DNA from: a virus
Lineage: Duplodnaviria > Caudoviricetes
DNA length: 44,854 bases
Direction: 5' to 3' (one strand)
IMG/VR virus record: IMGVR_UViG_3300027819_000020
Span: 1-44,854 of that record
The first letter of the stretch is position 1; every line of letters begins with the position of its first letter. Shown piece by piece: positions 2,863-27,806 of the stretch. The translations under genes and the position numbers were made by a program. Under the pieces are notes generated by a model that was given only the letters and a program-made list of their open reading frames with translations, made no database searches and was not told where the DNA came from.

Positions 2863-3027
2863 CTACAGCCGAGCCACCAGCCGGCGGGCCTCGCGCACCT
2901 TCCCCGACGCCGCCGCGGCCAGCGCGCTCACCCGCTCCAGCGGATGCAGAGCCACCAACGCGGCCTCAAGGAGGCGCTCGATCTGCTCCTGGCGCTCGAG
3001 CCGCGCCGTGGGGTTGACCGTTCCCAT
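2863..3027 (-). CDS. hypothetical protein (54 aa)
   Basis: Manual translation MGTVNPTARLERQEQIERLL..., with GAGGAGG upstream. Confidence 0.55.
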   Translation of the reverse strand: MGTVNPTARLERQEQIERLLEAALVALHPLERVSALAAAASGKVREARRLVARL

Positions 3028-3453
3028 TCTCGTGCCCTCCTCTCATAGTTCCGGCGGAAGCATTTGGCCCAGACCTCCCAACACCTCGGGCAGAGCCATT
3101 GAGCGTTCCCTCGGTGCTTCCATCGGTCTCTCTGACAACAGATACACGGGCCGTGTTGGTCCGCTCGCCAGTACCGTTCCATGCTGACTCGATACAGCAC
3201 CCCATCCATCTCCGCGCACGCCGTGGCGTAGACAGGCCAAGGGCCCCTCCCACGTAAGACACTACGCCGCACCATCGGGCTCGGCAACCGGGGCCACGTA
3301 CCGATGCCTCCGGCACAACTCCACGATTCGGCAGCCCAGCGAGCCATCGATGAACAACTCTACGACAACGCAGCAGCCGCACTGCCGCCGCGTGAACTGG
3401 GTTGACCAGACGGGCTTAGCTGGCACCGGACACCTCGGCAGCATCGATTGTTA

Positions 3454-4243: not shown

Positions 4244-4503
4244 GGCGTCATCACCCGTTCTGGCTTTCTGGCGCCCTCCCGCCACGCCAGCCACCGGGTC
4301 GCGAGCTGGCGCAGCCCACAGGCGGCGGGCGAGCGGGTGCCCGCGTAGGCTTTTCTAGCCCGGTACATGCTAACGAGATGCTGCCGCCCCTCCGGGATGG
4401 CGATCCACACGAAGGCGAAGTGGCGGTTGAGCGGTAAGAGCGCCCATGCCGCGGCCGCCTCGCAGCGCAGGCAGTGCTCCCCACGGGCGCTGATGCTGCT
4501 CAT
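4240..4503 (-). CDS. hypothetical protein
   Basis: ATGA-coupled ORF. Confidence 0.55.
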   Translation of the reverse strand: MSSISARGEHCLRCEAAAAWALLPLNRHFAFVWIAIPEGRQHLVSMYRARKAYAGTRSPAACGLRQLATRWLAWREGARKPERVMTP

Positions 4504-5147
4504 GGCGCCACCAGCCCGGCCGCAGCGAGCATCTCGGCAAGGTGCTCCCGCCGCCGGTCCCTGGCGGCGGCCCTGGCGGCGGCCCTGGCGGCGTCCCAGG
4601 CGGCGTCCCAGGCGGCGGCCCTGGCGGCGGCCCTGGCGGCGGCCCTGGCGGCGTCCCTGGCGGCGGCCCTGGCGGCGGCCCTGGCGGCGTCCCAGGCGGC
4701 GGCCCTGGCGGCGGCCCTGGCGGCGGCCCTGGCGGCGTCACGCTCTTGCTCGCTCGCCTCACCGGCCAGCCAGCGCCGTTTCGTCGCGATGGCGGCCCAC
4801 GAGCGCGCGTCCGGCTCTCGCCCGGCTTCCCTCTCGCGGAGCAACGCCTGCTCGGCGCACCAGCAGGCAAACTCGTGCAACTCGCGCGTCACGTCACGCG
4901 CGGCCACGAGCCTCCGCCGAGCCGAGACTCCCTTGGTGTCATCATGCGGGCCGTCATCCACGTCCACGATGCAGGCCACCGGCCCCGTCGCATACTGGAG
5001 GGCGTCGAGCCATGATGGTGAGTGGTGGTAGCCTCGCTCGCAGAGCACCAGCGGCCCCGCGATGGTCCGCTCCTCGCCCACGGTCCAGGGCGGCTCATCA
5101 CCCGAGCCTGTAGTCATGTCCGCCCGCAGAAAATGGTAGGCGATCAT
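4500..5147 (-). CDS. phage protein with AARAAA(R/W)D low-complexity repeat
   Basis: MIAYHFL...LCERGYH...DALQYA domain followed by an Ala-rich repeat. Confidence 0.8.
   Translation of the reverse strand: MIAYHFLRADMTTGSGDEPPWTVGEERTIAGPLVLCERGYHHSPSWLDALQYATGPVACIVDVDDGPHDDTKGVSARRRLVAARDVTRELHEFACWCAEQALLREREAGREPDARSWAAIATKRRWLAGEASEQERDAARAAARAAARAAAWDAARAAARAAARDAARAAARAAARAAAWDAAWDAARAAARAAARDRRREHLAEMLAAAGLVAP
4558..4738. repeat. 12-bp tandem repeat, about 15 units
   Basis: Units of ccctggcggcgg / cccaggcggcgt. Confidence 0.9.
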
Positions 5148-9961: not shown

Positions 9962-10368
9962 TCATGGCGCCACCAGAAACGGCGCAGGGTCCACCGGCTC
10001 ACCGTCCACCCTCACCTCGGCATGTAGGTGCGGCCCCGAGCTACGTCCGGAATTGCCGCTGAGCGCCACAACCTGCCCCTGGGCCACGAACTGGCCATGC
10101 AGCAACCCCGCAAAGCTGCTCAGGTGCGTGTAGTAGGTCTCTAGCCCATCCCCGTGGCCCAGGATCAGCAGGTTCCCGTACTCGCCGATGGAGGTCATGC
10201 GCGCCACCGTCCCATCGGCCATCGCGTAGACCGGAGTCCCAACCGGACAGCCGATGTCGATGCCAGTGTGGAATCCCCGGACGTAGGGACCAGGTGCGCC
10301 GTAAGGCTGCGTCACAGGCCAACGCTCATCGACAGGCCAGAGCAGGCGCGGCCCGTCTGGCCTCAGGC
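9962..10368 (-). CDS. M23 family metallopeptidase, probably the frameshift extension of the endolysin
   Basis: LLWPV...VTQPYG, HTGIDI, YTHL, GNSGRSSGPHLH, VDP; first in-frame start is at 10315 and lacks an RBS. Confidence 0.9.
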
Positions 10369-11559
10369 TGGGGGGAACTTGTCCGCCAATACCACCGCGT
10401 TGCCGCTGCCATCGACGTAGACCAGCGTCTCGGGCCTGCCGTCGATGAGCACGGACTGCACGATGAGCCCAGCGCCCGCCGCCCTCTCATTGGCCAGGGG
10501 CGTGACGGTGTGGCCCTGGGTGCGCAGGATGTTCGCCTTGACCAGCATGGCTCCGCCCAGGCCGATTTCGTCCATCGGTGGCTCCTCCTCTTCGGTCTTA
10601 GGGTGCTGTGAGATGTACAGCGCGATCCGCCGCAGAGCGGACCGCAGCAGGTCGCTCCGGAACAACTCCCACGCCTGCTGGTGGTCATCATCGTCGGCCC
10701 AGGTGTAGTAGGTCGAGCAATCCAGGTGCGGGATGCCCTCGTACAGGGTCACGTGGAAATCGACATAGCGATCCCGCCAATACGCCTCGTTCTCATAGGG
10801 TCCCGGAGTGTTCCACTCGGTCAGGGCGAACGCCTTGTGCGGGAACCGCGTCACGATGCCGCCCAGGTCAAACTCGTCACGGTGGCCTCGGGGACGCAGC
10901 GGGCGCCGCGTGCCCCAGAAGCTCCCCTTGTCCCACACGGTGTCCAGGTAGCAGTGGATGTCGACGATGTCGGCCAACTCGATGGACTCCGCGCAGATCG
11001 AGATGCCGTCGTAGCCCCAGATCACAGTCTCCATCCCAGCGGCGCGCTCGTCCTCGCTCGGCACCCAGCGGTCGTCATCTTCCCGGTTGCCGGGACTCCA
11101 GGCGGGGAAGTGGGTCAGCACCCTGGGACACGCTGCCTTGACGCGGCGATAGTAGATCGGGAAGGCCAGATTGCAATACTCGAACTGCTCCCGACTGTGT
11201 CCACCGCTCTCCTCCAAGGGGAGGTTGGTCTCGTTCCAAGGGATCGCCTCGCACCAGATATCGAAGGCGTCGTGAATCTCCCGTGCGATGGCGATCATGT
11301 TGTCAGCGTGGGACTCAACCTCACGAATCCAGTCGCCTCCGTCCCGCCACTCCCGGAAGCCCCGGAGCTGGGGCACCTGGTGCTGACGAATCACGATGCG
11401 CGGGTCTGGCCAGCCCCTACGCCGATGCTCACTGACGATGGTCCCGAGGTAGTGGCCGCGCTCCCCGGCCAGCATCAGGTAGACGTGGTACCGCTCCGTC
11501 AGAAGGTCGTTGATGTCGGTCCGGTCAGGACCATGCAGATGGATGCCAACATCTGTCAT
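10363..11559 (-). CDS. putative glycoside hydrolase (clan GH-A-like) endolysin
   Basis: WNETNL, DIHCY and LTEWN motifs; Pro/Glu linker; adjacent to the M23 domain. Confidence 0.7.
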   Translation of the reverse strand: MTDVGIHLHGPDRTDINDLLTERYHVYLMLAGERGHYLGTIVSEHRRRGWPDPRIVIRQHQVPQLRGFREWRDGGDWIREVESHADNMIAIAREIHDAFDIWCEAIPWNETNLPLEESGGHSREQFEYCNLAFPIYYRRVKAACPRVLTHFPAWSPGNREDDDRWVPSEDERAAGMETVIWGYDGISICAESIELADIVDIHCYLDTVWDKGSFWGTRRPLRPRGHRDEFDLGGIVTRFPHKAFALTEWNTPGPYENEAYWRDRYVDFHVTLYEGIPHLDCSTYYTWADDDDHQQAWELFRSDLLRSALRRIALYISQHPKTEEEEPPMDEIGLGGAMLVKANILRTQGHTVTPLANERAAGAGLIVQSVLIDGRPETLVYVDGSGNAVVLADKFPPA

Positions 11560-11599
11560 CACTCAGCCCCCTCCAGGATGCGCGCTACGTCAGCGGGGG

Positions 11600-13139: not shown

Positions 13140-13576
13140 TGCAGCAGTCGCACTTCCGGCATGGCCCCCGCCGCCAGTCCGGCCCGAATCTGCTCCGTCG
13201 CCAGATCGCCCATCGTCCGATCCCCAGGACCCAGGAGATACGGCAGAAACTCCTGCTCCATGTCCACTAGCCCATCCTCAACCGCCACCAGCTTGGCCTT
13301 GATGTGGTTCAGGAGCACACGCAATCGGCGCCGTCTCTCCTGCTCGCGCTGCTTCGGCGTCAGGGTGTAGCCATCCAGCGACCGAGGAATGGCCAGGTCA
13401 ACGCGGAACGCCAGGCTGCTGCCCTGATACGGCCAGGAGAACTCAAGGCGGATCACGCCCATCGTGTTCGTCCACCTGGTGGCGTCGACCTTGTGGCGCC
13501 GCAGCAGCACCTCAATCTCAGAGAGAGACTCGCCCTCCGAGACAGCCGTACCCTCGTAGTGACGCCGTTGGCTCAT
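13136..13576 (-). CDS. conserved-looking phage protein
   Basis: YEGTAVS...IKAKLVAVEDG....EFLPYL; GGAGG RBS. Confidence 0.75.
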   Translation of the reverse strand: MSQRRHYEGTAVSEGESLSEIEVLLRRHKVDATRWTNTMGVIRLEFSWPYQGSSLAFRVDLAIPRSLDGYTLTPKQREQERRRRLRVLLNHIKAKLVAVEDGLVDMEQEFLPYLLGPGDRTMGDLATEQIRAGLAAGAMPEVRLLQ

Positions 13577-14184
13577 CCCTGCACCTCCGAGATGGCGCGG
13601 TCCGCCTCTCGGGCGACACGCCGCAGGTGCCGCTCCACGACACGCCGCAGGTAGTGGCTGGGCTTCAGGCCGCGCACCCTGGCTTGCTCAACGAGCACAG
13701 CCCACCAGCGGGAACTGATTCGGAGCGCCACGGGGTACGTTAGGTGTCCGCTATGAGGTTCCGGTGGGCTTGGTTCGGCCACAACTCCATGAGAGTGACG
13801 CCGAGATGGGCCATCAGGGTTATCGCTTCCCTCATGCTGGGGAGTGAGCGGCCCGTCTCCCATAGGCTGATCCGCATGCGCGATAGCTCTGTCCTGTCGG
13901 CGAAGGCGCGCTGCGAGAACCCCCGGTTCCTCCGGTACAGGGACAGGTTGTTCGGGAACATCGCCCCGGCAGAGGGCGACATAGAACCCCCTGGCGAGAG
14001 TGAAGATATCGAGCCCGGCCTGCTTTCTGCTGTTACAGGTCCGGCAGCAGGCGACGCGGTTTCCGTCTTCATTCGTGCCTCCAAGGTGGCGAGGGTGAAC
14101 ATGGTCGATGGTGTCCGCTGGGCCGCCGCAATAGGCGCATGTGTAGTTCGCCGTCTCCAGGATAGAACGCCGCGTCTCTGCCAT
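13573..14184 (-). CDS. HNH endonuclease with C-terminal ribbon-helix-helix-like domain
   Basis: CAYCG...TIDHVHP..LGG.....NRVACCRTCNSRK; C-terminal PVALRIS-helix-G-x-x-x-S-x-YLR. Confidence 0.75.
   Translation of the reverse strand: MAETRRSILETANYTCAYCGGPADTIDHVHPRHLGGTNEDGNRVACCRTCNSRKQAGLDIFTLARGFYVALCRGDVPEQPVPVPEEPGVLAARLRRQDRAIAHADQPMGDGPLTPQHEGSDNPDGPSRRHSHGVVAEPSPPEPHSGHLTYPVALRISSRWWAVLVEQARVRGLKPSHYLRRVVERHLRRVAREADRAISEVQG
13740..13961 (-). CDS. XRE/Cro-CI family HTH protein nested in an alternative frame
   Basis: NNLSLYRRNRGFSQRAFADRTELSRMRISLWETGRSLPS...LGVTLMELW. Confidence 0.85.
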   Translation of the reverse strand: MFPNNLSLYRRNRGFSQRAFADRTELSRMRISLWETGRSLPSMREAITLMAHLGVTLMELWPNQAHRNLIADT

Positions 14185-14191
14185 CGTGCCT

Positions 14192-14223
14192 ATGGTATAC
14201 CACGAGCCGGGGAGCGTTGTCAA
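14192..14223 (-). promoter_or_regulatory. sigma70-type promoter, probably leaderless mRNA
   Basis: TTGACA-18-TATACC(AT) with upstream TG; ATG follows 7-9 nt later with no RBS. Confidence 0.6.
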
Positions 14224-14260
14224 GGGGTTTGTTGGGGGCATGGCCGAGTTGAACGGCGGC

Positions 14261-14527
14261 GCAGGTAGAGGCGGGCTATTGCGCGCGCTGCCCCCTCTAG
14301 ACCTAGACCAACTGGCGGGAGCGAATGCCCTCGCCAGTGCGGCGGAACCGTCCGCCGCTTCTCGCCCCCGCGAGAGTTGTGGGCCTGCGGGGAACCTTGT
14401 TCAGGGCTAACCCGCCTACTGCTGGACGACTGGCCAGGTACACCAGCGCCCGAACCGGGGCTATGGGTGGGCGCCTGCGGCCCACGATGCAGGCGCCGAG
14501 GCAGGGTATCCCCTACCCCTACTGGTG
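14261..14527 (-). ncRNA. candidate structured RNA C (two multibranch domains, possible pseudoknot)
   Basis: Many helices found by hand; preceded by TGCTAGAAT; no credible ORF. Confidence 0.6.
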
Positions 14528-14543
14528 GGCATTCTAGCATGGT

Positions 14544-14621
14544 TGGTAGCGGGGGCGGGATTCGAACCCGCGACCTGCGACTTATAAGGTCGCTGCTCTC
14601 AACCGCCTGAGCTACCCCGCA
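14544..14621 (-). tRNA. tRNA with TAT anticodon (nominally Ile), CCA encoded
   Basis: Cloverleaf: TGCGGGG/CCCCGCT, GCTC/GAGC, GCGAC-CTTATAA-GTCGC, GCGGG-TTCGAAT-CCCGC, ACCA. Confidence 0.95.
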
Positions 14622-14625
14622 TCAT

Positions 14626-14718
14626 TGGCCCCCGCGCTCCACTCGCTGCCCGGCTGGTGTCTGCTCCGCCGGGTCCGAGCCCGCTGACAAACTCAATAGC
14701 CCAGGGCCACGGGGGCCA
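14626..14718 (-). ncRNA. candidate rod-shaped RNA B (about 93 nt)
   Basis: TGGCCCCCG/CGGGGGCCA terminal helix; TATACT at 14724-14729. Confidence 0.5.
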
Positions 14719-14728
14719 GGGGCAGTAT

Positions 14729-14920
14729 AGCTGCTGGGCCGGGGGCCACGCTCCCCCGGATGCCTGCTCATGCCCCGTATCTTACGGACTTAGGGGTTGT
14801 CGTTGTCGGCCCGGTCGCGCTATCCGTCGCGTTGACCGGCCTACCGGAGCAGGCTCCACGTCTTTCTGGGCCACCTACCTGCGCAGGCTCCCCAGCAATC
14901 TCTTCTGCCACCCAGCAGCC
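14729..14920 (-). ncRNA. candidate multibranch RNA A (about 190 nt)
   Basis: GGCTGCTGGG/CCCAGCAGCT closing helix with internal helices; TGCTAGACT 6 nt upstream. Confidence 0.6.
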
Positions 14921-14960
14921 GACCCCAGTCTAGCACAAAGCAAGACGCCCCCCGATGTGC

Positions 14961-15089
14961 TCACCGCCAGACTGCCCACACCACCACGAGCAGCACGAGC
15001 AGCCCCAGCAGGTACCAGCCCATGCCCGAGGTGCCGGCCCACCACGCCAGCCGCGCGACCGGCGAGTCAGGCGCCGCGAGGGGCGGCAC
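14961..15089 (-). CDS. small membrane protein
   Basis: ...WYLLGLLVLLVVVWAVWR. Confidence 0.45.
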   Translation of the reverse strand: MPPLAAPDSPVARLAWWAGTSGMGWYLLGLLVLLVVVWAVWR

Positions 15090-15091
15090 GT

Positions 15092-15295
15092 TTACCCTGC
15101 CAGCTTCGCCTTGCCCACCATCGCGAGCAGGGCCACAGCAGCAGCGCGCACGCTACCAGCTCCGAGCGAGATGGCCCAGAGCTTCCAGTCGGCGACCTGC
15201 GCCGGGTCGAAGTCCACGAGCACCTGAAGCAGGCTCGTGGAGACGGCGATCAGCACCGCCCAGAGTAGCTCCTGCCCCCATTTCCAGTTGTACAT
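15092..15295 (-). CDS. putative holin
   Basis: 67 aa, two TM helices, basic C-terminus, AAGGAGG RBS. Confidence 0.65.
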   Translation of the reverse strand: MYNWKWGQELLWAVLIAVSTSLLQVLVDFDPAQVADWKLWAISLGAGSVRAAAVALLAMVGKAKLAG

Positions 15296-15305
15296 GTCCC
15301 CTCCT

Positions 15306-15545
15306 TTATCCCGTCGCCTCTACGGCAGTCGCGTGGTACACGCTGCCGCACCTCTGGCAGGCTCCCGGCTCGCTGCCTGCCAGGTCGATCAGGCAGGCGT
15401 GGGCCATCTCGTGCAGCAGCTCGATCCGGTACTCGGCCCCGCACTGGGCGCACCGCGCGACGTGAGCCGCGTCCGGGTGCTGCCGCAGGAACCGGCAAAC
15501 GTGGGGCTTCCGGTCGGCCTGGGCGTCAATGGTGCTGGTGGCCAT
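15306..15545 (-). CDS. Zn-ribbon protein
   Basis: CAQCG and CQRCG. Confidence 0.55.
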   Translation of the reverse strand: MATSTIDAQADRKPHVCRFLRQHPDAAHVARCAQCGAEYRIELLHEMAHACLIDLAGSEPGACQRCGSVYHATAVEATG

Positions 15546-15547
15546 CG

Positions 15548-15679
15548 TTACACGAGATGCCCCGCCGCGAACAGCGCCAGCCCAGCCGGGAGCAACGCCA
15601 CCGGCCCGAGCTGGACGCCGAACGCTGCCAGCACGAACACGATCACCGACGCCAAGTACAACGCACGCGCCACGGTCAT
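15548..15679 (-). CDS. small two-TM membrane protein (43 aa)
   Basis: MTVARALYLASVIVFVLAAFGVQLGPVALLPAGLALFAAGHLV; AGGAGG RBS. Confidence 0.65.
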   Translation of the reverse strand: MTVARALYLASVIVFVLAAFGVQLGPVALLPAGLALFAAGHLV

Positions 15680-15704
15680 GCCTCCTGCTCCATCATATCA
15701 AACC

Positions 15705-16082
15705 TCAACCCCACACCTTCAGCGCTACCGAGATCACCAGGCTCGCCAGCGTGACGCCCACGGCACCCGCGGCACCCCACGCGCGCATCGATGCCTGCGA
15801 TGCCCGTAGCTCGCCCTGGAGGTCCCCCAGCGCGCGCTCGATGGTCCGCATCCGGGACTCCGCCGCCCCCGCGTTGGTATCGAACACCTCCCTGGGCAGG
15901 TAGCGTTGCCAGTTCTGGACGGCCTGGGCGTGGGCGTGGTTCAGCTCATCCAGCCGCCGCGCGTACTCAGAGTGCTGAAGCCGCAGGGCCTCGGCCAGCG
16001 CCGCCAGGCGAGTCTCTACCAGGTCGTGCTCGTGCTGGACCCGCGCTTCCAGGTACTCGCGCAACTCAACGCTGAGCGTCAT
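15705..16082 (-). CDS. coiled-coil protein with C-terminal TM (lysis cassette)
   Basis: Helical region plus hydrophobic tail. Confidence 0.7.
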   Translation of the reverse strand: MTLSVELREYLEARVQHEHDLVETRLAALAEALRLQHSEYARRLDELNHAHAQAVQNWQRYLPREVFDTNAGAAESRMRTIERALGDLQGELRASQASMRAWGAAGAVGVTLASLVISVALKVWG

Positions 16083-16381
16083 GGCCGCCGGTGCTGACGC
16101 CGGCCCAGCAGCTCCGCCGACAGGTCGTCCAGGATGTCGATGATTCTCCGGTGCTCAATCTGGCTGGCCTGGGCCGCTACTGCCGCCTGTACAGTGTGCT
16201 CGGCCAGCACCTTGGCCTGGGACTCCATCTGCCCATGGCACGCCGCGAGCAGCTCCCGCAGGGTGCCGATGAACGTCCGCGCCAGCCACGACATGCCGAC
16301 GATGGCCATGAGCAGCAGGGCTCCAGCCGGCCCCCACTGGCGCGCGATCTCGCCGGTGTCGATGACTATCTCGGGAGTCAT
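16079..16381 (-). CDS. holin-like membrane protein
   Basis: QWGPAGALLLMAIVGMSW TM segment followed by a coiled coil. Confidence 0.65.
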   Translation of the reverse strand: MTPEIVIDTGEIARQWGPAGALLLMAIVGMSWLARTFIGTLRELLAACHGQMESQAKVLAEHTVQAAVAAQASQIEHRRIIDILDDLSAELLGRRQHRRP

Positions 16382-16440
16382 GCCGCCCGCTCATCGAGGC
16401 GCGGCAGCAGGTCATCGGACTGGCGGCGGTAGTCGGTCAT

Positions 16441-16929
16441 CTAGCTCCCTATCGCGAGCACATACGCCGTCACGGTTACAGTGCCAGCACCAGCCTTGTA
16501 GATACGCACCGCCGCCGAATTGGCCCAGACGTTCTCAATATAGCATCGGAGATCAGCCGCTCCAGTGTAGCGCACCGACGCAAACGGGAATATCGCCCCG
16601 CCTAGTTGGGAGTTCTCGATGAATGGGACTACTACCTGAGTGTAATCGTCGCCCGCCGCTGCCACCGCTGCCGAGCCGCCCGCGACCGTATTGTTCCCGG
16701 ACCAATATATCCCGGCGTTACGAGCACCAGCAGGTATCCCATGCACCCCAGAAGTGCGCGCCGAGTGCTCGAAAGCGACGCCGGACGCCGTATAGGCCCG
16801 CGCGCTGTTCGCCGTGATCCCCGCGTGGAACGAGCTGGCATTGAACGAGATGAAGTTGTTCCAGTAGCCGAAGGGGAGGATCGAGCTTGCGGTTACTGCC
16901 GAGACGGCGCTGTAGTCATATGCTGCCAT
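16441..16929 (-). CDS. minor tail / receptor-binding protein
   Basis: Follows the tail-tip gene; beta-rich; ends VLAIGS. Confidence 0.65.
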   Translation of the reverse strand: MAAYDYSAVSAVTASSILPFGYWNNFISFNASSFHAGITANSARAYTASGVAFEHSARTSGVHGIPAGARNAGIYWSGNNTVAGGSAAVAAAGDDYTQVVVPFIENSQLGGAIFPFASVRYTGAADLRCYIENVWANSAAVRIYKAGAGTVTVTAYVLAIGS

Positions 16930-16940
16930 GTGCCCCTACC

Positions 16941-18659
16941 TCACCAGATCAGGATGCCCCGGTCGAAACCCGGCCCCACGTCGAACCGGAAGAAGTCGCG
17001 CCCACCGGCCTGAACCAGGCTCTCCGTGAGAAACCACGTCGATACCACGTCGATGCCCTCAGCCGCCTTCGGCCGGATCGTGTCCTGGATCGCTGCCAGG
17101 TGATAGCGCCCGTAGCGGTTCGGGGCGTCCTCGGGGTCGCCCAGCCAGGGGTCCCAGTTGCCATCGTCGTACCGCACCTCAACGCTGTCGCCGAGCTGGG
17201 CGTCCACGGTCATGGCCGGGTCATTGGCGAACGTCACCTTCGGCGTGGCCCGGCTCGGACCGCGCGTTAGGACAATCTGCGTCGCCAGCGAGCCCGCGAG
17301 TCCACGGTCCTGGACCAGCTTGCTGCTCACCTGCTCCGGCTCCATCTGCCGAAACTCGGCAATGCTGCCATCATGCAGCCGCTCGTCAATGATGGCGAGC
17401 TGGGCGTCCATGACGGTGCCGCGAATCTTGAGCGTCTGGACCCAGATAACTCCGGTGTCAGTGTTCTGCAGATTGAAGTCGGCCGAGGCCCCATAGGCTA
17501 CGAAGTTGGGCGCCAAGTTCCCCGTCTTGTCCGCGCCGCTGCCGTCCTCGTTGGCGCTGGCCGTGTAGTCCGTCGTCGCTACCGGCGTCGTCACGGCGCT
17601 GGCCGGCCCCGTGTAGGCCACGTGCAGCGGGATGTACTCCCCCGGCTCCATGCGAATGGGCACCTGCTGATCCTGCAGGCTCCAGAGCGTGCTGGGGCTG
17701 CCCTGCGGCTTGTACGCCTGAGATTGCACCTGGGCGATGTTGCGCAGGTCGTCTATGCTGATCTCCTGCTCCTCGGAAAACATCTCGGCCCCGAGCGTCT
17801 GTTGGGCCGCCCAGGTGCCAGAGCCCTTCGAGCCGGCGCCAATGCTCCGCGCGGCCGTGTACTCGTGGTAGCGGCTGTGCACCACTACGGTGCCGTCGCC
17901 ATCGACGAAATACGACGCACCATAGGCGCTCACGATCTCATCGAGCGCCGCTTTCAGCGTCGAGCGGTCCCACCATGCGTAGGGGATGATGTCGCTAATG
18001 CTGTCAATGCTCCGGGCAATAAAGGCTAGCTCCTCATTGAACAGCGGCGCATTATCGAAGCCATTCCACGCGCCTTGCATATCGAACGTGAACCACAGGT
18101 TAGGGGAGTATTTGAGAATACGAGCCTGATTCAGAATGGTTCCAATGAGAGTATCCACCGCAACGTTGGCCTGCATCGCCAACGAGAACTTGATGCGCTC
18201 CATCTGCTTCATGGCGTCGCTGGCGTAGATGACGCAGGTCTTATCCCCGCCGGGGCTCGTGCGGGTTATCATGCGGTCAATCCAGCCAGTGAAGCGCCGA
18301 TAGACCGTGTGGGCATTGAGTATGTCGATGCGCACCTCGCGCTGTGGCCGCAGGTAGGCGAGCCACGGCTGACCAGACTGCTGGTCAGGCACCAGCTCGC
18401 TGCCGTCGCCGACGAGGATGCTATAGCGGTTCCACGGCGAATACAGGCCGTCGTCGTTGGTCAACTCGATAACGGCCTGCCCAGCCGCGAAGCCGCGCGT
18501 GATGCTCGACTTCCCACGGGAGTAGCGCACGCTGATAACGTGGTCACTGACATCGTTCAGCCGGGCCGAGCTGGGGTTGAGGCTGCCGCTCGTCGCCGCA
18601 GGACGGCTAAACGTGCCGTCATTGCCCCAGTCGATGCGGACCCTCAGCTCGTAGGCCAT
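16941..18659 (-). CDS. tail tip / baseplate hub protein
   Basis: Follows the tape measure gene; VRIDWGNDGTF, SRGK, LTNDDGLYSP, RFTGWI. Confidence 0.75.
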   Translation of the reverse strand: MAYELRVRIDWGNDGTFSRPAATSGSLNPSSARLNDVSDHVISVRYSRGKSSITRGFAAGQAVIELTNDDGLYSPWNRYSILVGDGSELVPDQQSGQPWLAYLRPQREVRIDILNAHTVYRRFTGWIDRMITRTSPGGDKTCVIYASDAMKQMERIKFSLAMQANVAVDTLIGTILNQARILKYSPNLWFTFDMQGAWNGFDNAPLFNEELAFIARSIDSISDIIPYAWWDRSTLKAALDEIVSAYGASYFVDGDGTVVVHSRYHEYTAARSIGAGSKGSGTWAAQQTLGAEMFSEEQEISIDDLRNIAQVQSQAYKPQGSPSTLWSLQDQQVPIRMEPGEYIPLHVAYTGPASAVTTPVATTDYTASANEDGSGADKTGNLAPNFVAYGASADFNLQNTDTGVIWVQTLKIRGTVMDAQLAIIDERLHDGSIAEFRQMEPEQVSSKLVQDRGLAGSLATQIVLTRGPSRATPKVTFANDPAMTVDAQLGDSVEVRYDDGNWDPWLGDPEDAPNRYGRYHLAAIQDTIRPKAAEGIDVVSTWFLTESLVQAGGRDFFRFDVGPGFDRGILIW

Positions 18660-21600
18660 CTAGCTCCAGTCCCGCTCCCGGACGATGTACTGGTGGACCA
18701 ACTTCGCGAAGTCCTGGGCGTCGCGGTCGGTGCCCATCATGGCGCCGACATGCAGATGCACCTCCGGGCCTGAGCCAGCCCGACCCGAGCGGGTGAGCAT
18801 GGCCGTGTCGGCGGCAGGCACCACGCGAGAGCCTGACGGGAGCGAGACAAGCTCGGGCCCCAGCTCGCCTACGCGCACCATGCCGCCAGTCTGAAATGCA
18901 GGCCGCGACGCAACCTGTACGCGGCCACCCACCTGGAAGCCGCCCGTCTGCTCCACAGATGTGAATGCCTCAGCGAAGGCGTTGCTCGCCACGATCATTT
19001 TGGAGATCAGCTCTTGGTAGCGCCGCTCGGCAGACTCCAGGTTTTTCATGGCCTCGTCGGTAACGGTGGTCATGAAACTCAGAGACTCGGTCAGCATGTT
19101 CGAAATGGCCTCATCAACCATCTGGGCCTGCTCCTCCGAGAGGAGGCCGGTTTTGAGCATCTCCGGCCGGAGCTTCGCGTGCCACTCGATGCCGGTCTTG
19201 ATCGCATCGGACACCATGTCATGCGCCCGACGCGCCTTGGCCAGTGCGATCCCCACCTGCTCCTGCTGCTCGGCTAGCGCCTGCCCGGCCGCCTGGAGCG
19301 CACGCACGACATCTTCCTGCGCCCGGATCGCGGCCTCGTTGGCCCGCAGCTCCCCCTCCAGCCGGGCGATGTTGGCGTGCGTCGACTGCACCTGGGCCAT
19401 GGCGGCCTCGAAGCTCATCTCCGGCTTCGCAGGCGTTGCGGCGGCCTGGATCTGACGCATGAGCGGGTCGTTCGCCAGCGAGCGTTCCAGTTGCGCCGCC
19501 TCGCGCAACGACTCCAGTTGCTCGCGCGTCATGCCGGCGAACTGGGGCGGCGTACCGGTGACGGGCTTGCCCGTGATCTCGGCCAGCCGCAACCGCTTCA
19601 ACTGCTGCTCGATCTCGAACTGCGATTCCTCAAAGGCGCCTTGCCCGGTCAGGCGCACGCTGGCGAGGTCCTGGAGCCGCGACTTGGCCTCGCCCAGCTC
19701 CTTGTTCAGCCGGCTCTGTGTCTCCTGGAGCTTCCGCAGGGCTTCCTGAGCGTCGCGCACGGCCGCCGAGTTGGCCCGCATGGCTGCCGTTAGGCCAGCC
19801 TGCTCCGCCTCCAGGCCAATGATCTGCATGTTGATGCCCTGAATGACGGGGGAGGTCGTCACCATGGCGTCGGCCAAGCGGCCCACGTCGAGAGAGGCAG
19901 TCTTGAGCGCGCCACCGCCGCCGGCTGCACCGGAGAGCCCGGCTAGGGCCGCGTTGACCTTTTCCAGGCTGTTCTCGTACTCGCGGGCGGGAGCCTCACC
20001 GGCTGCCACCTCCTCGTTGAGGCGCTTCCACTCTTCGAGCGCGGCGGTAGCTGCCGCGTCGCCCTGCTGCATGTCGGAGATGATCTGGTCGAACGGGTTG
20101 CTAGGGCCGGACATGCGCTCGTCGAGTTGAGCCAGCGCTGCGTCGATCTCGTCTATCGTCGTTGGCAGCCCACTCCCACCCAACGTCTCCTTCATGAGCG
20201 GCCCCGGTCCGATAGGGCCGAACTGCGATTCGATGAGGCGGCGCTGGGTCAGGAGCTCCGCCGCGCGTCTCTGGGCTTCCTGCCGCCGCTCGGTGACACC
20301 AAAGGCATCCTCTAGCCCGCCCAGCATCTCCTGGCCGAACTCGCCCGGCCCCAGCATGCCCTTGCCGGTCAGAACGCGGGATAGGTTCATCGCAGCGAAG
20401 GAGGCCGCCCCAATGGCGCCAATGACGAGGCCGATCTTGCCCACAGCGGTAGCGGAAAACGCTGTGATCGCCCCGGACAGTGCCGCGAATCCCCGAATCG
20501 CCAGCCCGATGCCGATGAGGAGCGGCCCACCCGCGGTGAGAGTCAACGCCAGCAGGACGATCTTGGCCTTTCCCTCCTCGCTCATGCCGGTAATGGCCTG
20601 CTGCAAGGCCCGCGTGGCGCCGATAGCGCGCGGCATAGCCACTTGGGCCATGTCCAGGAGGCTAGCCATTACCTGATTCCGCAGGATTTCGGACTGGAAG
20701 GCGAAGGACTTGCTCTGCTCATCCAGCGCCACTTTCGTCGAGCCGCTCGCCGCGCTCATGTCGGCTAGCATCTGGTTGAAGAGGGTGCCACCGTCCTGGG
20801 TCAGGCTCAGCACGCCGCGCAGCGCCCGCACGTCGCCGGTGAGGACGGCAACGGCCTCTTTGCTCCCAGCCGTCTTGCTTATCATGTCGTCCAGCACGCC
20901 GATAAGGCCCTTCGATGCAAGAGCCTCGGCGTTCCACTCTAGCCCCAACGCCTTGGCCAGCTTCTCGGCTTCCTTGCTGGGATCCAACAGGGACAGCATG
21001 ACACGGTTCAGACTGGTCGCTGCCTCTGCCGCGTTGATGCCCCGGCGCGTCATGGTTGCCATCGCGGCACCCAGTTGCTCAAGGGGCACGTTCAGAGCGG
21101 CGGCTGTGGGCAGGGCTTCGCCCATGTGCTGTGCCAACTCCTCAAACGTCAGGACGCCCTTGTCCACGGTCTTGAAGAGGATGTCGCTTGCCTGGTCGGC
21201 TGTGTAAGCAGCCTCACCGTAGGAATTGAGTACGCCAGTAATCACGCGGGCTGATACGGCCGTACTCGTGAGTCCAGCACTCGCGGCCCGTGCCGATGCC
21301 TGCAACACTTCGACGGCTTTGGCCCCTGCGAACCCGCTCGACTCGATGTCGTAGAGGCCGCGCGCCAGCTCGACGGCGGATTGCGGCAGACCCTTGCTCA
21401 GGTCTAGCACGGCCTTCCTCATGGCGGCCAGGTCGCGCTCCGACATTTTCGCAATGGAGTTGACGTTGCGCATCGCCCGGTCGAAGTCGATGGCGACCTT
21501 CGTCGCCATGCCTCCCATGACGGCAAGCGGCGCCGTCGCGATGGTCAGCGACTGGCCGATAGATGTGAGAGAGCGGCCAGCCCGCTCCAACCCGGCGAGC

Positions 21601-21698
21601 CCACGTTGGGCCTGCCCGAGGCCATGCTCGAACTGACGCAGCGGCCCCGAGAACGCGTCGGCGACGCGCAGGGTGATGGTGGTCGTGCGGTCAGCCAC
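18660..21698 (-). CDS. tape measure protein (TP901-type)
   Basis: 1012 aa helical protein; FDRAMRNV, ELARGLYDI, GELGPELV. Confidence 0.95.
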   Translation of the reverse strand: MADRTTTITLRVADAFSGPLRQFEHGLGQAQRGLAGLERAGRSLTSIGQSLTIATAPLAVMGGMATKVAIDFDRAMRNVNSIAKMSERDLAAMRKAVLDLSKGLPQSAVELARGLYDIESSGFAGAKAVEVLQASARAASAGLTSTAVSARVITGVLNSYGEAAYTADQASDILFKTVDKGVLTFEELAQHMGEALPTAAALNVPLEQLGAAMATMTRRGINAAEAATSLNRVMLSLLDPSKEAEKLAKALGLEWNAEALASKGLIGVLDDMISKTAGSKEAVAVLTGDVRALRGVLSLTQDGGTLFNQMLADMSAASGSTKVALDEQSKSFAFQSEILRNQVMASLLDMAQVAMPRAIGATRALQQAITGMSEEGKAKIVLLALTLTAGGPLLIGIGLAIRGFAALSGAITAFSATAVGKIGLVIGAIGAASFAAMNLSRVLTGKGMLGPGEFGQEMLGGLEDAFGVTERRQEAQRRAAELLTQRRLIESQFGPIGPGPLMKETLGGSGLPTTIDEIDAALAQLDERMSGPSNPFDQIISDMQQGDAAATAALEEWKRLNEEVAAGEAPAREYENSLEKVNAALAGLSGAAGGGGALKTASLDVGRLADAMVTTSPVIQGINMQIIGLEAEQAGLTAAMRANSAAVRDAQEALRKLQETQSRLNKELGEAKSRLQDLASVRLTGQGAFEESQFEIEQQLKRLRLAEITGKPVTGTPPQFAGMTREQLESLREAAQLERSLANDPLMRQIQAAATPAKPEMSFEAAMAQVQSTHANIARLEGELRANEAAIRAQEDVVRALQAAGQALAEQQEQVGIALAKARRAHDMVSDAIKTGIEWHAKLRPEMLKTGLLSEEQAQMVDEAISNMLTESLSFMTTVTDEAMKNLESAERRYQELISKMIVASNAFAEAFTSVEQTGGFQVGGRVQVASRPAFQTGGMVRVGELGPELVSLPSGSRVVPAADTAMLTRSGRAGSGPEVHLHVGAMMGTDRDAQDFAKLVHQYIVRERDWS

Positions 21699-22805: not shown

Positions 22806-23288
22806 CTAGCTGAGAAACCCGGTATTGCTGGGCCCGCTCGCGATGAGGCCCCGCACCCGGAACTCGTGGATGTTGCCCTCGGGCTGCTCCGTCACCGGGG
22901 CATCGAGCAGAACGCAGCGATGGAGCCGGTAGTAGATACCCGTGGTCGCGGCTTCGACGGCGGGGACGGATTGCTTCCATTCCAGGTGGAACGCAGGGAT
23001 CGTCGAGCCCGTCGCCGTCGCCAGGTTGATGGGCCAGTCGCCCGTCACGCCCTCCAGGACGCGGAATGACGCCTCCACCGGCGCACGACGCACGAGCTTG
23101 TGATGGCTCGGGATGCCCCGGTCCTCCGGCGTCGCGTACTCGCGGGGGTCGTTGAAGGTCCAGCCGGGCTGCACGAACCCGATGAGCCCGGACTGCGGCG
23201 TCGCGGCCGTGGTCCACGCCGTGCCCGTCTGTCCACTCGCCAGCACCCAGCGCAGGGTGCCCTCCTGCAGGACTCTGATCTCAGCCAT
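22806..23288 (-). CDS. tail tube-like protein 2
   Basis: Clear paralog of 23307..23846. Confidence 0.7.
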   Translation of the reverse strand: MAEIRVLQEGTLRWVLASGQTGTAWTTAATPQSGLIGFVQPGWTFNDPREYATPEDRGIPSHHKLVRRAPVEASFRVLEGVTGDWPINLATATGSTIPAFHLEWKQSVPAVEAATTGIYYRLHRCVLLDAPVTEQPEGNIHEFRVRGLIASGPSNTGFLS

Positions 23289-23306: not shown

Positions 23307-23846
23307 CTAACTCAGATAACCGCTGGCGGTCGGCCCCTGGACGGCCAGCGCGCGTAGTCGAAACTCCACCATGTTGCCCTCGGGCTGCTCCGTGTGGACG
23401 CGGTCCAGGATGCGCGCGCCATGGAACTGGTAGTAGATGCCGGTCAGGTTCGATTCCGTCGCCGGGATCGCCTGTTTGAACTCGACCATGAACTGCGGCG
23501 GGTTGGTCAATCCCAGCGCGCTCGGGCCGATGGCGGTGTTGCCGGTGGGCCAGTCGCCCGTCACGCCGTCGAGCACCCGAAACGACGCTTCGACGAACGG
23601 CACCCGCGCCAGCTTGTGCATCGTGGGCACGCCACGATCCTCGATGGGCGCGTACTCGCGGGCATAGTTGAAGGTCCATCCGGGCTGTACGAATCCGATT
23701 AACCCGGAGAGCGCGCCCCATGCGGCGGTTGCGGTGCCTGTGGGGACGGCCGACGCTGTGACCCAGCCCGTCGCGCTGATACCGGGACCGGCGCTGGCCT
23801 CAACCCAGCGGAGCGTCCCCTCTTGCCAGTTCCTGATCTCCGGCAA
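23307..23846 (-). CDS. major tail tube protein
   Basis: Follows the tail terminator; has its own leader; TTG start. Confidence 0.7.
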   Translation of the reverse strand: MPEIRNWQEGTLRWVEASAGPGISATGWVTASAVPTGTATAAWGALSGLIGFVQPGWTFNYAREYAPIEDRGVPTMHKLARVPFVEASFRVLDGVTGDWPTGNTAIGPSALGLTNPPQFMVEFKQAIPATESNLTGIYYQFHGARILDRVHTEQPEGNMVEFRLRALAVQGPTASGYLS

Positions 23847-25108: not shown

Positions 25109-25762
25109 CTACACCGCCACCAGGTCGGCCCGCACGTTGACCCCGAACGTCTCCGGCATCTCCGGATGGTGCGCCCTCCCAAGTGTCACCAGGGCCGTAT
25201 GGGCGTCGAAGCGGTAGCCAACGGCGTACCCTGCACTGGTCACCCCGCCGTCCGGTCCCCGGAGATAGGAGAAGGAAGAGGGGACCAGGTATCGAACGTG
25301 CGTCGGGTCTTGCATGGCCCCCCAGGTGAACGCGTATGGGGAGATGACGCAGCACTGGCCGCCGGGGATCAGCACGCGATGCACCTCGCGGAAGAAGCGG
25401 AACCAACCGTCCTCCTGGGTGCTCACTCCCCAATGGTGATGCCAGACATGCGGCGAGCTTCCCGGCTTCTGCCATGGTGTCTGTTGCCACGTGGACTCCA
25501 TAACCTCGTGCGGGATGTGCTCGGCCAGGTGGCAGCACATGACGTACCCGACGCTGTGGTCCCTGATTGGCCAGGGAAAGCGGAACAGGTTGCAGATGAC
25601 CGAGACTCCCTCGTCCCGCGCCAGGTCCAGGTTGACCCAGCCCTCGCTCTCCGGCAGCACCACCTCGCCACTGCCCAGGTTCAGCTTCGGCCCCGGCGGT
25701 ATCTCGGCGGCGCTGGGCCAGCCCTCGATGTGCTGCTCCAGCTCTGCCCAGCTACGGGACAT
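25109..25762 (-). CDS. SAM-dependent methyltransferase (glycan-cluster type)
   Basis: KLNLGSG..GWVNLD, HLAEHI, EVHRVLIPGG, QDPTH. Confidence 0.9.
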   Translation of the reverse strand: MSRSWAELEQHIEGWPSAAEIPPGPKLNLGSGEVVLPESEGWVNLDLARDEGVSVICNLFRFPWPIRDHSVGYVMCCHLAEHIPHEVMESTWQQTPWQKPGSSPHVWHHHWGVSTQEDGWFRFFREVHRVLIPGGQCCVISPYAFTWGAMQDPTHVRYLVPSSFSYLRGPDGGVTSAGYAVGYRFDAHTALVTLGRAHHPEMPETFGVNVRADLVAV

Positions 25763-26777
25763 ACTGCCCGTACACCTCGCGCAGTCTCGCACCGATGGCC
25801 TCGTGCCCAAACTCATGGCGCGCCCGATCCTCGCACCGCCGCGAGCACTCGCGCCAGAGCTTCGCCTCACCAAGGATCGTGTTGACCGTGTCCCGCAGCA
25901 GATCCCAGCGACCAGCCGGAAAGAATGGCACGAACCCATGATCGTACCGATAGCTCATGTGCACCGTCGGCACAATCTCGCGGAACGCCCCGCTGTCGCT
26001 CGTCACGATCGGCGTACCGCAGGCCATCGCCTCGATGCTCACGACGCCGAACTGCTCGATCCACGTCGGGGTCGAGATCGAGGGCATGACGACGATGTCG
26101 GCCGCGTTCATCAGCGCGACCAAGCCCGGCCCATGCTCAAGCTGACCAAGCACCCCCTCTAGCCACGGGCCGTCATATCCTCGCGCCGGTCCATAGACGC
26201 TCTCCGCCCACTCGCGCATCGGGCCATCGCCGGCCAGCGCAACGCGCCACTCCTGGCCCCGGCAGGCGTACGCGAGGTCCATCAGCCCCTTCTCCCATGT
26301 GAGCCGCCCGACGTACAGGACGCGCCGCCCACCAGAAAGGCGCCGCTCGGCCAGGGGCCGGAACAGCGTCGTGTCCACGGCCGCCGGCACGATATGAATG
26401 CGCTCCCGCTCGATCCCGTAGGTCGCGATGCACTCGGCAGCCATCTGGCTCCGGGGGATGAATGCACGGACTCCCGCGAGCATCCTCGCAGCAGCCGGGC
26501 TCCAGTAGTTGAACGGGATGTTCTCCCAGATGGTCGCCACGCACTTGCCCGGCCAGCGCTCGACGGCCTCCTGTGCCCAGGGGTACATGAGGTCGGCCAC
26601 GTCGTAGAGATCGGCGCCGTCCAACTCCTCCAGGCGCTCATACTGCCGGTAATCAGCCCAGGGCTGGGGCACGGTACCGCAGAACTCGTGAGTCCAGCCG
26701 TCCACGTCGAAGCCCGCCCAGGTCATGCGGTCCGTGGGGTTGGCGTGCCGGTCTCGGATCACGCGGAGCAGGGGCAT
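25752..26777 (-). CDS. glycosyltransferase family 4
   Basis: VDTTLFRP, YVGRLTWEKG, EQFGVVSIEAMACG. Confidence 0.95.
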   Translation of the reverse strand: MPLLRVIRDRHANPTDRMTWAGFDVDGWTHEFCGTVPQPWADYRQYERLEELDGADLYDVADLMYPWAQEAVERWPGKCVATIWENIPFNYWSPAAARMLAGVRAFIPRSQMAAECIATYGIERERIHIVPAAVDTTLFRPLAERRLSGGRRVLYVGRLTWEKGLMDLAYACRGQEWRVALAGDGPMREWAESVYGPARGYDGPWLEGVLGQLEHGPGLVALMNAADIVVMPSISTPTWIEQFGVVSIEAMACGTPIVTSDSGAFREIVPTVHMSYRYDHGFVPFFPAGRWDLLRDTVNTILGEAKLWRECSRRCEDRARHEFGHEAIGARLREVYGQYVP

Positions 26778-27583
26778 CAGTAGCCGACGTAGACCTGCGT
26801 CGATTCGGGCACGATGTGCTCGTTCCATCGCCTGTGGAACTCGAACGAGTTGGCCATGAACTGCCGCGCGTGACGCATCGCGTCGCCCGGCGTCTGAGTG
26901 TGCGCCACGGTGCTCTGGCCCACCAGGTGGACGAACTCGGCTTCCGGGCAGTACCAGACCTCGCGGCCCGCCGCCTTGACCCGCTCGCAGTAATCCACGT
27001 CCTCGAAATAGGCTCGCGGGTAGGCCACGGCATCGAACCCGCCCAGCTCATGGAACAGCGAGCGCGGCGTTGCCATGACGGCGCCCGTGATCCATGAGAC
27101 GGCGCATTCTGAGCCCACGATGCGATGATCGCCCGGCCAGCCCAGGTAGCGGTGATAGGGGCCTCGGCCAGCATCGTACTGCCCACCGCATGACTGGACC
27201 TTGCCGTTGGGAAACAGCAACTTCGGCCCCACGATGCCGGACCCGGGGTGCCGCTCGAAGCAGTCGAGCACCGCCTGGCACCAGCCGGGCCGCGCGAATG
27301 CGTCGCTGTTGATGAACACGAGGATGTCCCCCTGGGCAGCCGCCGCGAGGGCGTTGCAGTTGCCGCCGTAGCCCAGGTTCTCGGGGTTGCGCTGGCAGCG
27401 GAGGCCCGCCGTGAACCAGTCGCGGCAGTCGCAATCCGGAGAGGCATCGTCGCCAACGATGATCTCGGCCATGCCCTCGGGCACCGTCGTCTGGAGGTGC
27501 ATGACGCAGCGCATGGCGAGGGCGAGTTGGCCATACACCGGGACCAGCAGCGAGAGACGCGGGCCAGTGCCCCGGCTATCCAC
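26777..27583 (-). CDS. glycosyltransferase family 2
   Basis: VGDDAS, NLGYGGNCN, FINSDA, GGFD...YFEDVD. Confidence 0.95.
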   Translation of the reverse strand: MDSRGTGPRLSLLVPVYGQLALAMRCVMHLQTTVPEGMAEIIVGDDASPDCDCRDWFTAGLRCQRNPENLGYGGNCNALAAAAQGDILVFINSDAFARPGWCQAVLDCFERHPGSGIVGPKLLFPNGKVQSCGGQYDAGRGPYHRYLGWPGDHRIVGSECAVSWITGAVMATPRSLFHELGGFDAVAYPRAYFEDVDYCERVKAAGREVWYCPEAEFVHLVGQSTVAHTQTPGDAMRHARQFMANSFEFHRRWNEHIVPESTQVYVGY

Positions 27584-27806
27584 CCCGATACCCTAGCTCG
27601 CCTCTCGCTACCGCTGCGATAACCTCAGGAGGCGCTCCATCCAGGTGGCCAAGCAGAATCTCTGGTCGGTCCGATCCATGATGCGGTTTGTGCACCCAAC
27701 CATATGGCACCGCCCCACACAGGCAATAACTCCCGTCCGACGGCTCGCCACGCCATATCCGCCGATGAAGTTCGACTGGGTCGTCAGCCACCCTAGCCCC
27801 GCTCAT
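27576..27806 (-). CDS. hypothetical protein
   Basis: Coupled ORF inside the GT cassette. Confidence 0.5.
   Translation of the reverse strand: MSGARVADDPVELHRRIWRGEPSDGSYCLCGAVPYGWVHKPHHGSDRPEILLGHLDGAPPEVIAAVARGELGYRGG

Follow-up and report, generated by a model that had tools for sequence, protein, structure and literature searches.

A single tRNA gene is encoded in the 44,854-base stretch of viral DNA analysed here in full, hereafter the window, and it carries the anticodon UAU on a body resembling those of methionine tRNAs. The reading that we favor, at somewhat better than an even chance, is that of an isoleucine-charged, lysidine-independent reader of AUA codons that was recruited from a methionine tRNA; it is mainly the formylation signals of the molecule that hold our confidence near one half. 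A sequence-only reading of this DNA had offered three ideas: an AUA decoder independent of TilS, an escape tRNA directed against anticodon nucleases, and a non-decoding processing module. The first is the best supported of the three, although the tRNA lacks an Ile-type acceptor stem and C29-G41, and nothing was found in support of a module that serves processing only.

The tRNA gene and its mosaic body

ARAGORN places the gene at 14544-14621 on the minus strand, as the sole tRNA of the record, with anticodon TAT and an encoded CCA. Its sequence matches the full RF00005 model (positions 1-71) at 67.3 bits (E 1.2e-12), where the gathering score is 29, with cloverleaf, T-loop, and 3′ end intact. 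The acceptor stem, whose 5′ strand lies at 14615-14621 with U1 at 14621, reads U1·U72, G2-C71, C3-G70, G4-C69, G5-C68, G6-C67, and G7-C66, followed by A73; in the Rfam alignment 1-72 is the lone nonstandard pair, all other stem pairs being Watson-Crick. The D arm (14595-14612, minus strand) is of elongator type by Rfam alignment, direct inspection, and profile score, with G10-C25, C11-G24, U12-A23, and C13-G22 in its stem and G16 and U20 in its loop. The anticodon arm (14577-14593, minus strand) presents U34-A35-U36 at 14586-14584, followed by A37 and A38, on a stem of G27-C43, C28-G42, G29-C41, A30-U40, and C31-G39, in which G29-C41 is the only one of the three G-C pairs that initiators carry at 29-31/39-41. 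Positions 44-76, comprising the variable loop, T arm, 3′ acceptor strand, A73, and CCA, occupy 14544-14576 of the same strand. The TAT anticodon, G2-C71, C3-G70, A73, unpaired 1-72 position, elongator D stem, and missing triple G-C run to which the sequence-only reading drew attention can all be read from this anatomy. Free-energy folding of the RNA by itself gives a structure other than the cloverleaf (z −2.75, with 2 of 200 shuffles equally stable), so that the cloverleaf rests on the covariance model.

Contigs from sequencing runs X1 and X2 span 14547-15700 at a depth of about 17 with no letter differing from the window, and across 10,039 bases another assembly (L254) is 100% identical and likewise shows the TAT anticodon. 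The window, the X1 and X2 contigs, and L254 possibly derive from one source DNA, and contigs rather than raw reads were compared; at that level neither of the readings named earlier as a check, a CAT anticodon or G1, appears. Assembly error is contradicted by this agreement, with the same proviso of a possibly shared source. The UAU tRNA gene is real and intact.

The runs that bear the window are groundwater metagenomes, with no RNA dataset among those listed, a finding that speaks neither for nor against expression. The virus record is of linear class and is estimated by CheckV to be 85% complete; the L254 contig, which exceeds the record by 114 bases in length and lies at an offset of 12,862 bases, suggests a circular genome close to the size of the window. 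Genes for terminase, portal, capsid, tape measure, primase, helicase, glycosyltransferases, and an M23 peptidase all lie on the minus strand, and the tRNA gene sits between late and early-type genes. Upstream of it are co-oriented tail genes and small membrane-protein ORFs (14961-21698, minus strand), the tape measure gene occupying 18660-21698 on that strand, and their transcript likely carries the tRNA as well. Within 13500-16500 no match to a sigma-70-type promoter or terminator was found, within 13900-15200 no second RNA exceeded any gathering score, the flanks of the tRNA fold no better than shuffled sequence (z −1.57 and −1.73), and none of the repeats listed for the window involves the tRNA. 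About 300 bases downstream lies an ORF (13573-14241, minus strand) whose residues 14-78 contain an HNH endonuclease domain; its association with the tRNA is so far one of position. This ORF overlaps an HTH_3 regulator ORF (13740-14102) in another frame, reflecting either overlapping genes or a frameshift.

Several other features of the genome deserve mention in their own right. Three glycosyltransferases and a methyltransferase-like gene between the head and tail genes (25109-29607, minus strand) suggest glycosylation of the virion or its DNA. At 9962-11562 (minus strand), a 399-residue protein outside all Pfam and PHROG families, with a predicted glycoside-hydrolase-like fold, is followed by a stand-alone M23 peptidase; these are likely lysis genes, set apart from the tail module. 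A 12-base tandem array occupies 4509-4785 inside ORF 4500-5147, imperfect repeats occupy 31998-32569 inside ORF 31427-32623, and two adjacent tail-region genes (22806-23288 and 23307-23846, minus strand) are paralogs with 74% identity over 168 bases. A terminase scan returned no close phage relatives, and a capsid profile returned 46 loci, mostly at 36-44% identity or lower. The sole tRNA-bearing locus with a protein in common with the window is L192, through its terminase (41% identity).

The origin of the tRNA body was approached with a pattern for its 5′ half in which the wobble base was left free. This pattern recovered 93 viral loci and 40 distinct sequences, comprising 38 with a CAU anticodon, one with UAU (L180), and one with GAU (L116), most of them the lone tRNA of their locus. 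At 1-72 the 38 CAU members have a mismatch in 26 cases, A-U or U-A in 8, a wobble pair in 4, and G-C or C-G in none, and 30 of them have at least two of the three initiator G-C pairs. On sequence, then, the 5′ half of the window tRNA is that of a family of Met tRNAs in viruses whose members are initiator-like and have a D stem of elongator type. The CAU members (38 distinct sequences among L096-L188), lone viral tRNAs that join an initiator acceptor stem and a 1-72 mismatch to an elongator D stem, include several with altered D or T loops.

Class profiles give a concordant picture of the whole molecule. These were home-made, position-specific profiles built from 54 reference sequences with position 34 masked, and since class labels were assigned from rules at positions 3 and 11/24, they are to some degree circular (leave-one-out assignment, 51 of 54). 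Over the whole body the elongator Met profile scores highest (81.9 bits), followed by native UAU (71.4), initiator (56.3), and Ile2 (54.4). The acceptor stem is instead scored best by the initiator profile (23.8 bits, against 18.1 for elongator Met and −4.6 for Ile2), the D arm by the elongator profile, and the anticodon arm by native UAU (12.1 bits, with the three CAU classes at 2.1 or below). The Met-like body described from sequence inspection is therefore upheld, with elongator Met leading for the entire tRNA and initiator for the acceptor stem. Comparison with single genes agrees: the best elongator Met tRNAs match at 62-63 of 78 bases, and all 14 acceptor-stem bases, U1·U72 included, are identical to those of the initiator of genome G044. 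Read in this way, the tRNA is a mosaic in which an acceptor stem of initiator type is joined to an elongator D arm and an anticodon arm of the UAU class.

The 3′ part of the gene raises the question of whether it is kept for another purpose. Attachment cores often copy tRNA 3′ ends, and positions 44-76 could form such a core for a host initiator gene, the phage gene being retained mainly for that or having arisen by the recombination. All 33 of these bases are identical to the 3′ end of the initiator of G276, a 1,213-base X1 contig carries the exact 30-mer of positions 44-73 followed by a hairpin while other contigs continue into an initiator-type CAU arm, and the location between late and early-type genes would suit an attachment site. 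On the other side, neither a tyrosine integrase (PF00589) nor a resolvase (PF00239) was found in the record (0 of 1 each) or among the 54 ORFs scanned, and the offset of L254 suggests that little is missing despite the CheckV estimate. The 30-mer is moreover a conserved stretch, identical in the initiators of 2 of 301 and 3 of 151 sampled genomes from two phyla, elongator Met tRNAs have the same variable loop and T arm, and an attachment core has no need of a full cloverleaf. We consider this explanation improbable. As a marker of the host the 30-mer was rejected, the same counts (2/301 against 3/151) being nondiagnostic.

Marks of the UAU class at positions 31-39 and 1-72

The feature that most clearly sets the anticodon arm apart from that of the CAU family is the pyrimidine at position 31. 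Among UAU tRNAs it is present in 44 of 59 from viruses and 22 of 33 from genomes, but among CAU tRNAs in 1 of 39 from viruses and 3 of 42 from cells, and it occurs in 1 of 7 GAU tRNAs; the Fisher p of 9e-14 for the UAU-CAU contrast is overstated because relatives were counted. These counts, like those for U72, describe related sequences rather than independent events, and the pooled sets (position 31, U72, profiles, UAU carriers, and the elongator Met comparison) take in the G193 and G392 loci, although none of the conclusions depends solely on these two.

The first base pair shows a second tendency. In a viral UAU set that was partly selected on a Met-type acceptor, U72 occurs in 32 of 51 tRNAs, against 47 of 227 of other isotypes, and a 1-72 mismatch in 13 of 51 against 5 of 227; in genomes U72 occurs in 19 of 31 UAU tRNAs and 14 of 69 others. 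Within a set of 32 distinct viral UAU tRNAs that was unselected on the acceptor (4 rows being out of register), U1·U72 is found in four, including that of the window, and two of the other three have Ile2-type stems with G3-C70 and C4-G69. Weak first pairs that involve U72 are a frequent trait of UAU tRNAs in their own right. The earlier interpretation of the 1-72 mismatch as an initiator and formylation mark is accordingly retained in part: the stem is initiator-like, but the mismatch had been given too much weight, given how frequent a weak pair with U72 is among UAU tRNAs.

Together with the family comparison, these marks bear on whether the gene is a decaying or freshly mutated copy of a CAU family member without a selected function. 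Such an origin would fit the predominance of CAU in the family (38 of 40 sequences), the commonness of C-to-T changes, and the lack of a close phage relative with the same gene: among 34 capsid-related records, mostly fragments, three have a tRNA and none a UAU tRNA. Apparent fresh switches also exist. L240, for example, equals the elongator Met tRNA of its host from the D stem onward save for position 34. Yet these near-copies of host elongator Met genes (L236, L240, L243, and L245) all keep a purine at 31, whereas the window tRNA has C31-G39 as in the UAU class, two more coordinated changes from the family state, and its score, intact CCA, and Watson-Crick stems (save 1-72) speak against decay. 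Judged by its stem, then, the window tRNA is not a fresh C34-to-U mutant, and we regard loss of function as quite improbable, somewhat more so than the attachment-site explanation. The near-copies themselves (L243 at 3001-3052, L240, L245, and L236) are TAT-bearing genes in cellular genomes that reflect either fresh mutations or sequence errors; one of the group sits in a complete Pelagibacter chromosome.

The combination of a UAU anticodon with G2-C71, C3-G70, and G4-C69 was found at 47 viral loci, which gave 29 distinct tRNAs after 5 loci were dropped in parsing; a true 1-72 mismatch is present in 10 of the 29 (11 were scored, L200 being misregistered). In 185,579 species genomes, UAU together with a Met-type acceptor and an elongator D stem occurred only 14 times, in 13 cases with tilS over the cut-off, and two Streptomyces copies of a UAU tRNA with this acceptor are the same as tRNAs in viral records. 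GC-rich Streptomyces and viral loci (L019/L209, L219, L239, L244, and L246-L248) carry UAU tRNAs with a Met-type acceptor where ATA is almost absent nearby, and in L019/L209 the UAU tRNA is paired with a tRNA-Leu(UAA).

Charging, formylation, and the demand for AUA decoding

Measured against the isoleucine elements in Table 1 of PMC9976931, the window tRNA has A73, U12-A23, G16, U20, A35, U36, A37, and A38, and its loop (U34-A35-U36, A37, A38, with A73) is that of a UAU reader. The acceptor stem is not of Ile type, having C3-G70 and G4-C69 in place of C4-G69 (native UAU tRNAs have G3-C70 in 13 of 13 and G4-C69 in 5 of 13), and the Escherichia coli IleRS element C29-G41 is replaced by G29-C41. 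Nor does the molecule resemble a TilS substrate of the tRNA-Ile2(CAU) kind, which has C34, G3 or A3, C4-G69, and C5-G68, where the window tRNA has U34, C3-G70, G4-C69, and G5-C68. How well an IleRS would accept it may depend on the enzyme: that of E. coli performs about 360-fold worse with a UAU anticodon than with the lysidine-containing LAU, a single Arg lets Mycoplasma mobile IleRS cope with UAU, and type-2 IleRSs have been suggested to be UAU-reading (PMC3575796); one type-2 enzyme is more exacting about the anticodon than type 1, the text naming no G34U variant (PMC13752280). Once charged, a tRNA with unmodified U34 can read AUA strongly and AUG weakly, as reported in Bacillus subtilis (PMC3919564).

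Because the body lies nearest to elongator Met in whole-tRNA score (81.9 bits, above native UAU) and in its best single matches, one must ask whether the tRNA might instead be charged with methionine and read AUA or AUG as Met, in a partial recoding. The CAU anticodon that tRNA-Met carries is replaced by TAT in the window, L254, X1, and X2, and C34 is a listed MetRS determinant (PMC9976931). At the few informative ATA sites that could be aligned with homologs, 0 of 14 residues are Met; the terminase site has Ile in 3 of 3 homologs, and the portal site has Ile and Val in the two closest homologs and Met in 3 of 119. No sign of AUA-to-Met recoding was found at the aligned sites, and of all the alternatives weighed here we hold this one the least probable.

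The acceptor stem nevertheless carries the complete initiator set (unpaired 1-72, G2-C71, C3-G70, G4-C69, and A73), and every listed formyltransferase acceptor element is present, as far as the list in PMC9976931 shows. The D stem, in contrast, has C11-G24 rather than the A11-U24 of initiators, purine 11 and pyrimidine 24 being the initiator feature (PMC1635315; PMC9976931), and the three G-C pairs are reduced to one. An E. coli tRNA with the mismatch and without the three G-C pairs was formylated, initiated poorly, and entered the EF-Tu pathway mainly when Fmt was limiting, and the mismatch alone left EF-Tu binding possible (PMC6393288). For the window tRNA, the missing A11-U24 and an amino acid other than Met would be expected to slow formylation.

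These signals could be taken to mean that the phage deploys an AUA-specific initiator, charged and formylated, that starts its proteins at AUA codons. An acceptor stem identical to that of an initiator, a source family in which at least two G-C pairs are kept in 30 of 38 members, the occurrence of a full initiator D arm in other viral UAU tRNAs (L192, L201, and L204), and the ability of engineered initiators to start at non-AUG codons (PMC11744186) all agree with this idea. It is difficult to reconcile with a D stem that lacks A11-U24, with one G-C pair of three, and with the genome itself, since none of the called genes starts at ATA and none of seven distinct Shine-Dalgarno-plus-ATA sites falls at a gene start, one of them lying inside a tail gene. 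Initiation at AUA is in our judgment very unlikely, only marginally less so than methionine recoding. The internal site, at 17756 (minus strand), is an in-frame ATA at codon 302 of a 572-residue tail protein with AGGAG six bases upstream, and is probably a by-product of Glu codons. L192, L201, and L204, which combine a UAU anticodon, an initiator D arm, and a 1-72 mismatch, as well as L218 and L233, whose D arms are initiator-like, would be better candidates for AUA initiation; L192 is the locus whose terminase is 41% identical to that of the window.

A further alternative dispenses with decoding altogether. The tRNA could act as a decoy or sink, either poorly charged or charged and formylated and then neither initiating nor elongating, which would bait enzymes that attack initiator or isoleucine tRNAs. 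The full formyltransferase signature, the presence of fmt in the probable host phylum, the single initiator G-C pair, and the low demand for AUA are all compatible with it, as are reports of phage tRNAs altered near nuclease sites (PMC10264068). The same paper indicates, however, that phages tend not to encode tRNA-fMet when its anticodon is the target, and a decoy leaves the UAU-class 31-39 pair unexplained. We therefore rate it unlikely, while giving it more weight than the attachment-site, decay, initiation, or recoding explanations.

Codon use gives the favored reading, an Ile-charged AUA reader, little work to do. ATA makes up 22 of the 478 Ile codons of the 62 called genes and is spread over 15 genes, among them those for terminase, portal, tape measure, and tail proteins; the count includes one hand-added 56-codon entry that is out of frame and has no ATA, and a second gene caller gave 20 of 427. 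Relative to four-fold boxes, where A/T is 598/631, the phage avoids AUA by a factor of about three (ATA/ATT 22/72), and with a log-ratio of −1.01 its avoidance is at least as strong as that of the capsid relatives (median −0.72 over 15 loci). These per-gene counts agree with the earlier judgment that codon demand is a weak explanation. Among viruses more widely, avoidance of AUA is weaker in carriers of UAU tRNAs with a Met-type acceptor than in those of the CAU family (median log-ratios −0.29 for 28 of 32 loci and −0.76 for 28 of 35, p=0.008), a difference that becomes borderline after GC3 is taken into account (0.43 ± 0.22, t=1.9).

The probable host and precedents for lysidine-free decoding

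The host is probably a member of the Chloroflexota. The three best Atlas clusters for the putative lysin and 5 of its 10 structural rows are mostly from this phylum, and the portal homologs include one named from an Anaerolineae bacterium along with a weaker one from Pseudomonadota. The lysin sequence was found in 0 of 151 and 0 of 151 genomes, and neither the terminase in the Atlas nor the glycosyltransferase among plasmids gave a host signal. Distant capsid-profile matches in 68 of 401 genomes had no control phylum beside them and were not used for the host call. The sample G049-G448 carries its Chloroflexota label putatively.

In this probable host phylum the UAU pattern matched 41 of 401 genomes, many by chance, and 28 carriers were accepted by ARAGORN or stem pairing and, in a few cases, by eye. 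No tilS match was found in 19 of these 28, compared with 1 of 30 noncarriers; the sampled genomes are incomplete to an uncertain degree, so that absence here means not found. In four tilS-less genomes that were inspected, the CAU genes found were of initiator and elongator Met types only, and all five IleRSs examined have the type-2 C-terminal domain without the type-1 zinc finger. On the evidence of tilS-less UAU carriers, Met-only CAU genes, and type-2 IleRS, decoding by UAU thus appears to be native to part of the probable host phylum. The tilS-less carriers fall into three groups (G384, G264, and G432; G127, G349, G397, G333, G309, G172, G405, G357, G181, and G317; and G188, G143, G161, G427, G179, and G197), one of which has U38 in the anticodon loop. 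The formyltransferase gene fmt was detected in 5 of 5 genomes tested, in four over the cut-off.

The closest functional precedents are chromosomal. The tRNA-Ile(UAU)s of M. mobile, Bifidobacterium, and Neorickettsia and a B. subtilis tilS suppressor share with the window tRNA the UAU anticodon, A37 and A38, A73, and an elongator D arm, and lysidine-free reading of AUA is predicted here as for them (PMC3575796; PMC3919564); Bifidobacterium and Neorickettsia also have a type-2 IleRS, as does the probable host phylum (PMC3575796). Those tRNAs, however, are Ile-derived and replace tilS (PMC3575796; PMC3919564), whereas that of the window is viral, with a Met/initiator acceptor (C3-G70, G4-C69) and a 1-72 mismatch. 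Mobile UAU tRNAs are also on record: a Latilactobacillus curvatus prophage carries one alongside the tilS of its host (PMC10688831), and a horizontally acquired tRNA cluster of Mycobacterium mucogenicum includes one that is expressed, with an HNH gene nearby and tilS in the host (PMC6582537). Unlike the latter, the window tRNA stands alone in its genome, the comparison with these mobile tRNAs being one of setting rather than of body.

Compared with initiator tRNA-fMet, with which it shares unpaired 1-72, G2-C71, C3-G70, G4-C69, and A73 (PMC9976931; PMC6393288; PMC1635315), the window tRNA lacks C34 and A11-U24 and has one of three G-C pairs. Elongator tRNA-Met has the best whole-body score, the same D stem, and the same pairs at 2-71, 3-70, and 4-69, some examples with G1·U72; it differs in that the window tRNA has U34, a 1-72 mismatch (0 of 19 elongators), and C31-G39 (1 of 19). 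The process most like the one we envisage is the alloacceptor anticodon shift described in eukaryotic genomes, in which identity changes through an anticodon substitution (PMC3923123); here it would have occurred in a phage, from a Met type to UAU, and with a matching change at 31-39. Searches of GenBank phages and plasmids returned generic tRNA matches only, the four that were opened having CAU, and in a literature search with most subscription journals outside its scope, neither a Met-type body on a UAU tRNA from a phage, nor the pattern at 31-39, nor the loss of tilS from Chloroflexota was found to be described. A list of UAU carriers in Supplementary Table S1 of PMC3575796 may bear on novelty. 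Phage UAU tRNAs are thus already published, while the Met-body mosaic is found in no paper searched. According to a review, the tRNA genes missing from phages are the same as those missing from bacteria, UAU included (PMC8007984); the approximately 59 distinct viral UAU anticodon arms recovered here with narrow patterns stand in contrast to that statement.

Taken together, these observations are most consistent with a model in which a viral Met-type tRNA underwent a C34-to-U switch along with remodelling of its anticodon stem, and lost charging by MetRS together with C34. The tRNA would be cotranscribed with the late genes and processed by host enzymes, after which a type-2 IleRS of the host would likely charge it with isoleucine and it would likely read AUA in elongation without lysidine. 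Incomplete formylation, for want of A11-U24 and with Ile in place of Met, would leave a pool for EF-Tu. We infer that the benefit, if any accrues, is insurance for the 22 AUA codons of the phage when the minor AUA reader of the host is scarce or under attack; for this particular phage the stakes would be small.

There is still only a partial explanation of how a U34 that lacks modification can decode AUA yet not misread AUG, and of how IleRS comes to accept it; the window gene and its relatives provide a natural series from CAU initiator-like tRNAs to UAU tRNAs that points to positions 31-39 and 1-72. A broader and more speculative proposition, which we think unlikely in its full form, is that phages repeatedly rebuild start-codon tRNAs into AUA readers, that UAU works only with pyrimidine 31 and purine 39 and a first pair loosened through U72, and that the window tRNA is of dual use, its Ile form being split between EF-Tu and the formyltransferase. 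If this is true, then the window tRNA would be a natural formyl-isoleucine tRNA, and the series to which it belongs would supply a rule, expressed in sequence, by which AUA is read and AUG is not misread.
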